Positions 6,399-49,271 of a stretch of 64,000 nt of DNA are shown here, in pieces. Numbering within the stretch: position 1 is the stretch's first letter; every line of letters starts with the position of its first letter. Source of the DNA: Eledone cirrhosa (lineage: Eukaryota); the NCBI GenBank assembly GCA_964016885.1, contig OZ024740.1, positions 240,064,001-240,128,000 of the forward strand. The letters run 5' to 3'. A program made the translations under genes and the position numbers. The notes under the pieces were generated by a model. That model had not been told where the DNA came from, searched no databases, and saw nothing but the letters and a program-made list of their open reading frames with translations.

Positions 6399-6437
6399 TA
6401 CTTAACCGGTTTCATGATTCCATGATTTTCAAAAATA
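6399..6437 (-). ncRNA. Minimal hammerhead-like motif, UUGAAAA core variant
   Basis: Reverse complement: tattt TTGAAAA tcatggaatcat GAAAC CG GTT aagta; stem II is weak. Confidence 0.45.
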
Positions 6438-7189
6438 GTATCAGATGGAAAGCGATGGAGCTATGGAAGAATTATATATATATGTGGGGGGGGGGGGCTA
6501 TGTGTATGTGTATGTGTGCGTGTGTGTGGAGAGAGAGAGATAGAGGGAGAGATAAAGATATGGATGTGGATATGCATGTACATGTGACAAAAAAATGTGC
6601 AAAAGAGAAAGAATCATAAAAAATCTATGAAATGTTTGTTGAAGGAAAGCAGGCTTTTGTAATTGCTATAATCTATAATCGAACAAATTTGTTTGGTAAA
6701 ACTTTGAAGATTAACGATTTTGGTGTCAGTTTAAATTAGTCTTTTAATATGTCCAAAACCTTGCAACTTAAAATTGTCAAAAAATTATAAAACTTCAATA
6801 AACATTTCTATGTCTGCAGTTACTGATAATCTAAATTTTCTGTCAGTTTTCTCTATACTTTTATTTCTTGATTAAAGCCAGAGAAAATTAGTCTCGTTAT
6901 ATTTTTTATAATCAATGATAAAAATATGCATTTGTTTGCATGAACCTAAGTTTAAAATATCCATCAATATCAGTAAACACTTTCTATTGTCTTCAGCGTA
7001 GCAACTCGATTTATATAACAATTTTCACTTTAATATCCCTCTTCCAAAAAATAAGATTTCGCATTCCGCATATTGTACTATCTTTTCAAAATCTAAATAT
7101 TCTTTGGAAATCAAGGTATATTCTTTTGAAATAAATTTGTATAGTCGAATTAATTGCTTTTCAATACATAACAAGTTCTTCTTAGTACA

Positions 7190-7530
7190 TTATTATTTTT
7201 ATTATTGTGTTATTTTGCTTGGTTCTGTTCTGTTTTACCGGGTTCAGACCTTGAATCTAGAGCAATAAAAGTTTACATTGTAGAGAGAGAAGGAGGAGCT
7301 TGTCTGAGGATGTGTACTGTTCCTCGTAACCCAATCTTCTGTAATTTATATTTGGTGATTCTGCAAGGAAGGACGCCAAGGTGCAGTTTCTGCTTCAGCT
7401 GTTAAATGCTGTGGACGAAGGAGGCTCCGTGTGGCGCCAGATTGATGGAGGACCCTTTAGTTCAATCAAGAAGTCAAAGGTGCCATCTGAGCAAGGAAGA
7501 TGCCTACAAAGCTTGGCTTGGAAATAACTC
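7190..7530 (-). mobile_element. Old R4/Dong-like 3' end fragment
   Basis: Homologous to 5780-5968; minus strand QKIGLRGTVHILRQA with an (AAT)-type tail. Confidence 0.55.
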
Positions 7531-7780
7531 CTTTTATACATTCAGTACATTCCCGTATGCTATCACACTAATAAGATTCTAATTTATGACATATTGAAGC
7601 AAGTGATAAATTTGTGGTTCGATTCTCGCTAAAGGGTCTTTTGCTTATCATCTTGTTTAATTTACATTCAATCCTTAGCTATCAAAGTTTAATATAGGCC
7701 CCTTATCTAGCGTAGCGTTCTAATCGCTAATCCTCATGATTGTATTTAAAATTTCAAAACTGTATCTGTATTATACAAAG

Positions 7781-7985
7781 GACAATGAATTGGCAGTGTC
7801 GGTAGAGCGTCAGACAACATGCTTTGTGGTATATAGTTACAGACCTTTACGTTCTGAGTTCAAATTCTGCCAAGTTTAGCTTTACCTTTCATAGATAAAA
7901 TAAAACACCAGTAATGCACTGAGGTCAATGTAATCGACTTCTGCGCCCCCCAAATTGTTGATTTTTGTGCCTAAATCCGAAACGA
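7781..7985 (+). mobile_element. Diverged tRNA-derived SINE
   Basis: gaattggcagtgtcggtagag...gagttcaaattctgcc...caccagtaatgcactg. Confidence 0.75.
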
Positions 7986-8021
7986 TTATTTGTATCATAT
8001 GACCTGAATATTTTATTTCTC

Positions 8022-8300
8022 CCAGTTCCCTAAGCTAACACACTGCTTTATATAGTCTCTTGTAGTTCCTTAAATTAAGCCAGTTTTATTGCACAACACG
8101 TGCTAAATTAACCCAACGTTTTATATAGTCCCCTATGCTAAGTTATCCTAGTGTTTTATATAAGGCCCTAAACCAGCCCAATGCTTTATATAGTTCCCTA
8201 ATCTAACCCAGTGCTTTACACAGTATCCTAGTGTTTCCTAAGCTTCTCCAATGTGTTTATATAGCCCTGTATGCTAAGCTAACCCGACGTTTTATATAGC
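8022..8300. repeat. Degenerate ~39-bp minisatellite
   Basis: Recurrent agttccctaagctaacccagtgctttatat-like units. Confidence 0.65.
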
Positions 8301-8847
8301 AAATTCATTAGAACGTTGAATAAAATGTTTTGCTGTCTTCGTATGTCTTCGTACTGACTCTTTGCTCTCTGAATTCAAATTCCGCCGAGGTGAACTTTTC
8401 TTTTCATACTTTCAAGTCGATAAAAAAAAGTATTTGTCCAGTACTAGGGTAGATTCTTCTTTTCTCTCTCTCTCTCTCTCTCTCTCTCTCTCTCTCTCTC
8501 TCTCTCTCTCTCTCTCTCTCTCTCTCTCTCTATCTATCTATCTATCTATCTATCTCTCTCTCTCTCCTTCTTTGAATAAATCGGCTGTAGTCAGACCTAG
8601 ATAGAGGGTATGCTCTACCATGTTTAAAAGTGGCCAAGAGATGATGTATGTCACTACTGTGCCGTTACGACTCAATCAGGTGTTATGATCCATACATACT
8701 ATGTTAACCTAATATGTTATATATTCCTTTATACTATGTTAACACTGTTTTATATCGTTTCTAATGCTACGTTCTATATCATCATATATATTATGTTTAA
8801 AATATCGTCACATATGCTAACATATTGTTTAATTTTTCTTCATCCAG

Positions 8848-46310: not shown

Positions 46311-46454
46311 TATGTTAGTTCAGTGTCTAACAACAGTTACAGACGACGCGCAGTTCGAAGCACTCGATGCTGTTACAAGGTCCGTTTCGTTTGGGTTGTA
46401 TTCCAGTTACGGCTGTAGTGTGCAGAGTGTAAATAGATTTGAAAGAGTCGAAGT

Positions 46455-46745
46455 CAGTGTTGCAGCATATGTACAAACTTTATTTGCTTATTACAATTGT
46501 TTCGATATGGATCACCATGGTACAATCAAGGTGACGGGATCCGACTCTTTTTCGACATCTCATTAGATATGCGAGCTTATATGTGCGAAGACACAGTTTA
46601 GATGTATCTTCACACATATAAGCTCGCATATCTGATGAGATGTCGAAAGATAGGCGGGCCTCGTCACCTTGCTTGTAACCTCAGCCGAACCATATCGAAA
46701 CAATTGTAATATGCAAATAAATGTTGTACATATGCTACGACACTG
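46455..46745. mobile_element. Diverged fold-back element containing a hammerhead
   Basis: Arms about 46455-46595 and 46603-46745, imperfect reverse complements. Confidence 0.7.
46626..46714 (+). ncRNA. Type I hammerhead ribozyme, canonical core
   Basis: gcatat CTGATGA gatgt...atatc GAAAC aatt GTA atatgc; then AATAAA. Confidence 0.75.
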
Positions 46746-47844
46746 CCGGAACCTATCCCAGTTTCATTGGCGTCAAGCAACTGTGTGTAGAAGACTCCAC
46801 GCCTGGGAATAACACCTGTTTATTGTTGAGTACCCTCCCCCAGTTGCTCCTAGTACTCGTTTTCATGTGAGTTGAGAGGAGCAGGGAGATATGAAGTCTT
46901 TTTCTCAAGAACACCACCCTATCCAGAAATCAAGCCGAAGAAATTATGATTGTAAGCCTAACACCTTTACCACTAACAGGTTTAGTAGTATATATAATCT
47001 ATTACATATATAAACATATGGCATATATATACGTATATTCTGACGTGTTGCACGAGTATACTTTTATAACGATTTATGCAAATATTTAACACTGATTCAT
47101 AAAACCTATGAAAATATGTTGATATACATTCTAAAGTGTGTGCGTGTATGAATGTGCGTTTGTGTGTGCGTGAGAGAGAGAGAGAGAAAGAAAGTGTGTG
47201 TGTTTGTGAGTGCGTGTGTGTGTGTGTGCGTGTATGTGTGTGTGGGTGCGCGTGGGTGTGTGCGTTTGCGCGCGCGTTGCTGTGTGTGTGCATTTGTTTA
47301 TGCGTGTGTGTGTGTACGAGGGACGATTCTCTGTGTGTAGATGTAGATAATGCTATTCTTTTGCCGTATGCGTTGAATTACATCTTGTCTGACAGGTTGT
47401 TTATTAGAAATGTAAGAGCCAGAGGAAGGTTTTTTATGTATATAGTTAATTAGCATGTATTCTTTCGTGATGTATGCATTTGCCTACAGCAATTTATAAT
47501 CAGTGCATATCTGTTTAGAATCCCACCTGTAAAGAATAATAGCAATGTTCGTTTAATTATTCCTATAACCTTTTGTGCCAGCGGTGGAAAAGACGAGAAC
47601 ATATATTACTAGATTTGCTTTAGCTTCCGGCCATACCTGTAGGTATATATGCATGCGAATTGTCATATAAAGTTTAGAATTAGCATTAATATGCTTAGTT
47701 GCTGAATAATTAGATGTGTGTGTGTGTGTGTCTCTCTCTGTGTGTGTACGTGTGTACCTGTGTCTGTTTATGTATATCTATGTATATATAAATATCTACA
47801 TATATTTACGTGGATGTATATATATATATATATATATATATATA

Positions 47845-48431
47845 TAATAAAATATAGAGAAAAATACTGCAGGTAGCACATGGATAACATGTAATAAAAT
47901 GAGTCCCCCATCAGTGATTTGCCGACGATCATCGATATTTCATTGCATTAAAAATCATATACCTCACGTCGGTGCAATAATAACCAAAATAAGTTATTAG
48001 GACAATTGAAACGCGTAAAGCGAGTGAGACAGGAGAACAACACAGAGTATAGCTAACCGTAGGGGAAAGAAACAAGCTTCAAAATTATTCTGTTTAGCAT
48101 AAGCTAGGTGAATATATGAGCGCTTTTAGAAAACAGACCTGACACGAACTCTGGCCATGTGAGAAGAGAGAAAAATAGCCTTCGTGGTGTACAGGATGAA
48201 ATGAAGAGAAGAGAAACAGTGAGTGAGTGAAAGTGTGAGGAAGAGTTAACTGACATGACAGAGGGGGAGAAACAGAGAGAGCAGTAAGAGAGAGAGAGAA
48301 AAAAACACAGAATCGCAGTGGTAAATATATGTAATAAAATATAGAGAAAAATACTGCAGGTAGCACATGGATAACATGTAATAAAATGAGTCCCTCATCA
48401 GTGATTTGCCGACGATCATCGATATTTCATT
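47845..48431. repeat. Partial tandem repeat with ~98-bp direct terminal repeats
   Basis: taataaaatatagagaaaaatactgcagg...gatatttcatt at about 47845 and 48332; flanked by (TA)n. Confidence 0.8.
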
Positions 48432-48440
48432 ATATATATA

Positions 48441-48601
48441 TAATGTATAATAAACAATACAATATAATTACCTCATTACCAGAGGTTTCCCGAATAAGAC
48501 GAATACGAAAAACGTCCTCATTCGTTCGTCGGACAAGGCAATACATAGAGCACTCTTCACTCCTATGACTGTTTCAATTTTCAACGGAAACTTCAATACT
48601 T
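48441..48601 (-). mobile_element. Solo terminal repeat of the Naiad-like PLE family, with CCGACGA hammerhead
   Basis: 48441-48541 matches 23540-23640; 48542-48601 is approximately the reverse complement of 23464-23523. Confidence 0.85.
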
Positions 48602-48792
48602 ATATATATATATATATATATATATATAATATATTTAGAAACACACAGATACATGCGGACACACACATATATACATGAATGCATCCGCACCCAACTGTGA
48701 GTTAAGGGTGCCAACTTCACCGATGTTGCTCAATGAATGACTGGGACAGACCAATTTAGTTGAACTAGACTGAACCAGTATCAGAGTTAAAA

Positions 48793-49271
48793 ATACATTA
48801 TGAAGAGAGAAGAAACATTTAGATATAATTAGTAATAAAATGTATCATACCTAAACTGCTCCTAAATTCCTCGACTACGTAGTTTCGTGGCATAAACAAA
48901 AACAATATATCATAAAGATATAGAGTCCTTGCGAGGTCTGCCGACTTATCAAGAGGATACCTCATTTTACTAGTCTCAAGAACGCGTCTACACGACGTGA
49001 GAAAGAATCCCAAAAGGCGGAGGGGGAGATAGTCACGCGATATAACGGTCGAGAAATTCTTTCTCACGTCGTGTAGACGCGTTCTTGAGACTAGTAAAAT
49101 GAGGTATCCTCTTGATAAGTCGGCAGACCTCGCAAGGACTCTATATCTTTATGATATATTGTTTTTGTTTATGCCACGAAACTACGTAGTCGAGGAATTT
49201 GGGAGCAGTTTAGGTATGATACATTTTATTACTAATTATATCTAAATGTTTCTTCTCTCTTCATAATGTAT
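48793..49271. mobile_element. Young near-perfect fold-back element (215-bp arms)
   Basis: Arms about 48793-49008 and 49056-49271; a fragment of the same family lies at 23214-23290. Confidence 0.9.
49107..49196 (+). ncRNA. Type I hammerhead, intact UUGAUAA (U3-A8) core; mirror copy at 48868-48957 on the minus strand
   Basis: tcctc TTGATAA gtcggca...tgccac GAAAC tacgta GTC gagga; all stems pair, stem III palindromic ACTACGTAGT. Confidence 0.75.

Follow-up and report, generated by a model that had tools for sequence, protein, structure and literature searches.

The stretch analysed here (the window) comprises 64,000 nucleotides (nt) of the Eledone cirrhosa genome, positions 240,064,001 to 240,128,000 of contig OZ024740.1 (forward strand, assembly GCA_964016885.1). 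It is 34% G+C and belongs to a 3.0-Gb assembly that is rich in (TA)n. The window carries copies of a hammerhead ribozyme motif in which core positions 3 and 8 read U and A (UUGANAA) in place of C and G (CUGANGA). A sequence-only reading had cited six such cores in five repeat families, and all six are present where it placed them (Table 1; copies are named here by the position of U3). All are type I motifs: stem I is 1-5 base pairs (bp) long and, as that reading described, a palindromic stem III, ACCGGU or ACUACGUAGU, ends in GUH with A, U or C at position 17. A seventh, previously uncited core belongs to the same family as the copy at 16187. A strict descriptor is passed by two motifs in the window (19146 and one with a C3-G8 core), against 0.07 per shuffle; the other cited copies are excluded by long loops, altered GAAA segments or weak stems. 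An Rfam covariance-model scan at E values up to 10 returned no hammerhead among the best 150 of 267 matches.

The earlier attribution of these motifs to Penelope-like elements (PLEs) is borne out by their location in the pseudo-long terminal repeats (pLTRs) of elements encoding a reverse transcriptase (RT) and a GIY-YIG endonuclease (EN). This was seen in three families, labelled N1, N2 and N4, and at one locus of a fourth, N5; a sister family, N3, is also U3-A8. In the window, the 27874 copy does lie at the 3′ end of a Neptune-like PLE, whose broken open reading frame (ORF) of RT, linker and GIY-YIG is situated ∼450 nt upstream of the motif. Translations of N1 and N2 contain a CX2-5CxxC linker and, at the C terminus, a GIY-YIG domain, and Pfam RVT_1 and GIY-YIG were both found. 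This linker after the RT, with a C-terminal GIY-YIG, is the Neptune criterion, shared by Nematis (PMC8557442). N2 elements have intact 784-amino-acid ORFs that are 75-76% identical to the N1 query. N4 is the most abundant of these families; at its locus L154 each of the two pLTRs holds the motif, and the RT-EN ORF remnant between them is 39-47% identical to N2. The old family N5, to which 6432 belongs, is related to N4 and has flanks in common with it; its copies are 69-92% identical to 6432, and a Neptune thumb/EN remnant lies upstream of the motif at its one informative locus (L250). N1-N5 are provisionally labelled Neptune rather than Nematis on motif differences.

Stem II differs among the families. 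In PLE minimal hammerheads it adjoins the core and is usually closed by G10.1-C11.1. A stem II in this place is present in N2 (5 bp), in N4 (4 bp) and in the retrozyme and family X described below; in N1 and N3 a U-U apposition is followed by 3-4 bp. The N5 subfamily has U10.1-U11.1 and then ∼2 pairs, and the 6432 copy itself has no pairable stem II adjoining the core. Across N5 and N4 subfamilies positions 10.1-11.1 read U-U, G-U and G-C, changes that keep pairing. A young C3-G8 family of the same genome, N6, reads C-G in 32 of 32 motifs. Locus L153, entertained as a C3-G8 Neptune, was rejected when its ORF piece proved to be N4. The N2 pLTR (L137) is ∼75% identical over 109 nt to N4 pLTRs (L042 and L154), yet the N2 RT is closer to those of N1 and N3, hinting at an exchange of pLTRs.

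Table 1. Hammerhead motifs and related features of the window, with the positions of core nucleotides U3 and 17
Feature	Coordinates	Strand	U3	Position 17	Remark
Minimal U3-A8 hammerhead of the old N5 subfamily, related to the 19146 family	6399..6437	-	6432	6404 (U)	Stem II eroded
Family X 3′ halves (GAAAC-stem III-GUC), inverted pair	9563..9696				First core absent at this place
N2 motif, second inverted copy	15642..15678	-	15675		Arms 15514-15811 and 16051-16348
Minimal U3-A8 hammerhead in a pLTR of N2, a young Neptune family	16184..16220	+	16187	16217 (A)	Fixed C13 (GCAAC)
Family X, two further 3′ halves	18913..19125				18913-18973 (+), 19077-19125 (-); second abuts 19146 pLTR
Minimal U3-A8 hammerhead in a pLTR of N4, a Neptune family	19143..19178	+	19146	19175 (A)	Most abundant U3-A8 family
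3′ tail fragment of the 591-nt retrozyme	23177..23288	-			Without core
U3-A8 minimal hammerhead, 3′ pLTR of Neptune family N1	27842..27876	-	27874	27845 (A)	Private GAAAC change; U10.1-U11.1
Broken Neptune-type RT + CX4CXXC linker + GIY-YIG ORF	28317..30998	-			Upstream of 27874 motif
Retrozyme hammerhead, inverted second copy	48868..48957	-	48952	48873 (C)	Inverted pair 48793-49271
U3-A8 type I hammerhead of 591-nt non-LTR retrozyme	49107..49196	+	49112	49191 (C)	5-bp stem I, long stem II; stem III a 10-nt palindrome

Genome-wide, these cores far exceed chance. The pattern TGANRA-N8..18-GAAACCGGT was found 21,307 times, mostly in N4, and its reversed version 215 times. Subtracting C3-G8 (106), U3-G8 (130) and non-U3 with A8 (489) leaves ∼20,000 U3-A8/ACCGGU motifs, a figure in which purine-3 with G8 is not separated. 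The single mismatches (0.6% U3-G8, 2.4% non-U3) are at the level expected of post-insertion decay, so that the counts speak to the family norm and not to selection on copies. U3-A8 is that norm, as opposed to decay: it was read in all 29 N1 motifs tallied in 30 loci of best RT matches, and in 99 of the first 100 matches listed for the retrozyme. Motifs with C3-G8 are at least as common in this genome, a pattern with ACUAGU as stem III matching 42,155 times against 471 for its control (98 of the first 100 listed were C3-G8). As the sequence-only reading anticipated, a search restricted to CUGANGA would miss the variant motifs, by our estimate at least 30,000 of them: ∼20,000 with ACCGGU, 5,000-6,000 of N2, ∼6,300 of the retrozyme and, in addition, the uncounted family X.

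The paired copies at 49112 and 48952 belong to an element of a different kind. Its non-coding unit of 591 nt is repeated head to tail with a period of 590-597 nt, in numerous arrays, an organisation that makes it a non-LTR retrozyme. The corresponding pattern matched 6,850 times against 532 for the control, the listed matches noted above reading TTGATAA. Folded as a circle, the unit has 62% of its bases paired, and no homology was found between it and the pLTRs of N1, N2, N4 and N6, the ones compared. Closed contigs of 620-621 nt were assembled from two sequencing runs whose kind is not recorded, and tandem DNA would fit them equally well. A reading of the very high contig depths of the retrozyme and of N2 as abundant circular RNA was rejected in view of the unrecorded run kind, the thousands of genomic copies and the loose contig ends that enter (TA)n flanks. 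In many retrozyme copies a rearrangement junction falls just upstream of the segment with GAAA and the palindrome, a position that template switches at inverted ends would be expected to produce. The genome also holds long C3-G8 retrozyme arrays with an ACUAGU stem III and ∼420-500-nt units, one with more than 30 units (G000:C1:5738327-5752443 and others).

A further U3-A8 hammerhead family, family X, was met while tracing the fragments at 9563-9696 and 18913-19125. Complete copies elsewhere in the genome have a 6-bp stem III and read U3-A8 in nine of 12 distinct copies and C3-A8 in the other three; in the copy that was folded, the hammerhead is the minimum-energy structure (-29.7 kcal/mol). 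The C3-A8 copies (L148:7151, L151 minus strand and L372:477) share one diagnostic flank change, suggesting that a subfamily of X spread with a mismatched 3-8 pair.

How often the double change arose was addressed with an RT-EN tree of 29 rows (IQ-TREE quick mode, LG+G4, reference-anchored alignment), reduced from 49 by dropping ten rows without a motif call and ten redundant ones; three opposite-strand matches, one each of C-A, A-A and C-G, were left out. N1-N5 are joined with a Shimodaira-Hasegawa-like approximate likelihood ratio (SH-aLRT) of 98, beside a foreign element that shares their ACCGGU but is C3-G8, and N6 falls outside. The families of 6432, 16187, 19146 and 27874 thus descend from one Neptune clade, and the claim of separate changes in five families gives way on this tree to a single inferred event for four of the five. 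Across species the picture is different. The ten U-A rows do not form one clade, a constraint rejected by the approximately unbiased test (p 0.00016), and six changes are placed among 27 labelled rows, from which we infer that the U3-A8 swap recurs across PLEs. The case for selection on a variant ribozyme is better served by this wider comparison than by the window; long branches, and motif calls made by descriptor on the same contig, limit the tree result.

Covariation of positions 3 and 8 was also found among foreign elements. A descriptor that left both positions free gave 29 matches in 86 foreign PLE loci (342 kb of metagenome and genome contigs), against 0.5 per approximate dinucleotide shuffle. 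Watson-Crick combinations account for 28 of the 29, namely 20 C-G, six U-A, one A-U and one G-C. Counted by family there are 17 C-G and five U-A (Fisher p 3.8e-5), the table omitting a C-A match with a 54-nt loop and an A-A match, both on the strand opposite to the ORF; none of 22 foreign families has a mismatched 3-8 norm on the ORF strand. The A3-U8 and G3-C8 cores are apparent ones on contigs L293 and L320, single copies each, so that all four Watson-Crick pairs apparently occur at 3-8 in PLE hammerheads. PLE ORFs, some with hammerheads, were also met in contigs filed under bacterial bins (L346-L352; proteins P0024, P0059, P0061 and P0073), which are probably host DNA carried along.

Two of the window motifs had been described as mutated in GAAAC, and this holds in different senses. 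In 27874 the change is private decay, 26 of the 29 N1 motifs having GAAAC and the full core. The GCAAC of 16187, by contrast, is the N2 norm: N2 has C13 in place of A13 in 19 of 19 aligned copies, whose pLTRs are 78-100% identical and include subfamilies at 78-86%. An N2-directed pattern gave 17,086 genome matches against 1,055 for its control. Among the first 100, 37 were N2-type (36 GCAAC and one GGAAC) and ∼60 were set aside as an unrelated repeat without stem II; extrapolation from these 100 puts N2 at ∼5,000-6,000 copies. One N2-like GAAAC motif occurred among the first 100 of the 21,307 ACCGGU-pattern matches. No change reaching 3% was listed at N2 positions 3, 8 and 13 in four sequencing runs (two samples of one study, possibly the same source as the assembly). 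Conservation of the motif beyond its flanks was not significant (no substitutions in ∼37 nt against 18 sites in ∼364 nt). Five intact N2 ORFs differ at 0-7 of 2,352 nt, having been picked from best matches and so biased to young copies.

Mutation of A13 reportedly inhibits hammerheads 10-100-fold (PMC4075628). Fixation of C13 in a family of this size with near-identical intact ORFs therefore suggests one of two things: either cleavage is dispensable to N2, or weak cleavage suffices. Tentatively, N2 may be a natural, currently mobile PLE with a U3-A8-C13 core. Such a core would either retain cleavage, as a new natural variant in which C13 is tolerated thanks to A8, or be inactive, N2 then exemplifying in vivo how an element can spread while its ribozyme is disabled. 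If so, N2 beside its intact-core sister families of the same genome would make it directly testable whether PLEs need their hammerhead, and it is the part of this work that merits bench time. A literature search found no natural C13 hammerhead, with thin coverage of subscription journals.

Taken together, the motifs are best read as type I hammerhead-shaped U3-A8 sequences, in the terminal repeats of one Neptune-type clade and in a 591-nt retrozyme, that quite probably cut their transcript after GUH. Transcription would run through tandem pLTRs or retrozyme units. In N1-N5, a dimer would then form whose stem III joins two palindromic ACCGGU segments; family X and the retrozyme probably have the monomer fold open to them as well. 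The cut after GUH would probably be slow, perhaps with help from protein, and would set free unit-length RNA for the Neptune RT-endonuclease to insert at (TA)n. A single fixation of U3-A8 likely took place at the base of the N1-N5 clade, and its retention would be explained by the 3-8 contact being satisfied by either pair. N2 would later have fixed C13, which is expected to slow cleavage, without ceasing to transpose. Folding energies are compatible with parts of this scheme: the retrozyme hammerhead fold (-23.4 kcal/mol) lies close to the free minimum (-24.7 kcal/mol), and the self-pairing of ACCGGU (-8.3 kcal/mol), together with the unfavourable monomers of the Neptune-type families, fits a dimer.

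Several observations weigh against catalysis. Monomer hammerhead folds of N1, N2, N4 and N5 are unfavourable at +2.4 to +9.2 kcal/mol, stem I of N1 next to the core has only 1-2 bp, and pairing of U3 with A17 could extend stem I into an inactive fold. When one type III hammerhead was scanned in depth, rescue of 3-8 came from the G-C swap alone, other double mutants being low (PMC9901934). In PMC4209133 the family assayed was C3-G8 rather than U3-A8, and its activity was low even as a dimer. Fixed C13 in N2 and C3-A8 in three of 12 X copies show that presumably damaged cores can spread.

These points feed an alternative in which the Neptune-clade motif is no longer catalytic and has persisted as a folded RNA handle that serves the RT-endonuclease, or within a promoter or 3′ end, with U3-A8, the eroded N5 stem II and the N2 C13 as steps of relaxed catalytic constraint. 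The invariant C13 of the aligned N2 copies and the near-identity of the five N2 ORFs would follow naturally, given the reported cost of A13 mutation, and there is precedent elsewhere: hammerhead mutants of an anole PLE left in vitro insertion unaffected (PMC11167929), and Naiad PLEs proliferate without canonical hammerheads (PMC8557442). Harder to accommodate is the retention of GUH, G12 and A14. Moreover, Watson-Crick pairing between 3 and 8 is confined to the catalytic conformation, and still all but one of the 29 foreign matches retain it, as do N1, N3, N4 and N5. We consider the loss of catalysis unlikely on this evidence. A further alternative would dispense with selection on the pair altogether, U3-A8 having been fixed by chance in master copies under A+T mutation pressure. 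The low G+C content of the window, the shared origin of four of its five families and the resemblance of copy mismatches to neutral post-insertion decay all lean that way. However, no autonomous family examined has a mismatched 3-8 norm, each of the six C-G/U-A changes on the tree switches both bases, and A-U and G-C pairs occur as well; chance fixation is accordingly very improbable in our view, and a probable self-cleaving motif remains the preferred reading.

Other features of the window include C3-G8 type I hammerheads of further PLE-like families, arranged as inverted pairs at 43448-44023 (cores 43844+ and 43652-) and 46455-46745 (core 46632+), which provide handy controls from the same stretch. 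None of the loci retrieved was related to sites 7089(-) and 60407(+). A second broken PLE at 23905-26017 (+) has an EN linker of a different, Nematis-like type (CNC...CPL..C) and lacks a recognised hammerhead at the 3′ end. Another non-coding repeat, at 26689-27522, consists of two tandem copies spaced 609 nt, again with no hammerhead recognised. The window also holds an open non-LTR RT frame of 1,141 amino acids at 38265-41690 (+), with several 3′ fragments close by, and a DDE_3 transposase remnant at 10780-11373 (-).

Contrary to the novelty implied at first, U3-A8 in PLE minimal hammerheads is already in print: Cervera and De la Pena (2014; PMC4209133) described it in Schistosoma, with ∼1,300 matches that a first descriptor had missed. 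As a sighting of U3-A8 the present motifs matter little. A literature search (C3U/G8A hammerheads, octopus, cephalopod) found no catalogue of these families, its coverage of subscription journals being thin. Natural core variants including U3-A8 and U10.1-U11.1 have also been reported by Perreault et al. (2011; PMC3088659), with covarying 3-8 pairs active in vitro in earlier work, so that both the covariation and the stem II start seen here have natural parallels. The variants described in the available text of that paper are A6C, A6a, U13a and U15.1-A16.1, with no C13, unlike N2.

The closest counterparts are the Cercyon PLEs of Schistosoma mansoni, Sm3/Sm4 (PMC4209133), which likewise have a type I motif in PLE terminal repeats that a CUGANGA descriptor misses, a UUGAUAA/UUGAAAA core, a short stem I, palindromic 15-16 and numerous copies that are solo or inverted. 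The families described here differ in being Neptune-type, in their 6-nt palindrome ACCGGU, in a more than 20-fold higher copy number and in including one C13 family; N2 and N4 lack the single unpaired base after A9, and N1, N3 and N5 have U10.1-U11.1. The 591-nt element resembles animal non-LTR retrozymes, whose link to PLEs has been discussed (PMC7229834; bioRxiv 10.64898/2026.07.22.740005), in its tandem array of non-coding units that each bear a type I hammerhead, its thousands of copies and its co-occurring PLEs. Unlike the retrozymes described in animals (∼170-400 nt), it has a unit of 590-597 nt and a U3-A8 core. Dimer cleavage of PLE hammerheads is summarised in PMC6765202. PAc, a Poseidon element of Anolis (PMC11167929), similarly has a pLTR hammerhead in an EN-containing PLE, with the 3-8 pair tested by compensatory mutation; it is C3-G8, and its measured activity needs protein and is not needed for insertion in vitro. 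To these systems the present analysis adds the recurrence of U3-A8 on the RT tree, a family X with a stable stem III and the fixed C13 of N2. Repeated origin of U3-A8 and a fixed C13 in a young family offer natural material on how much cleavage a PLE needs.

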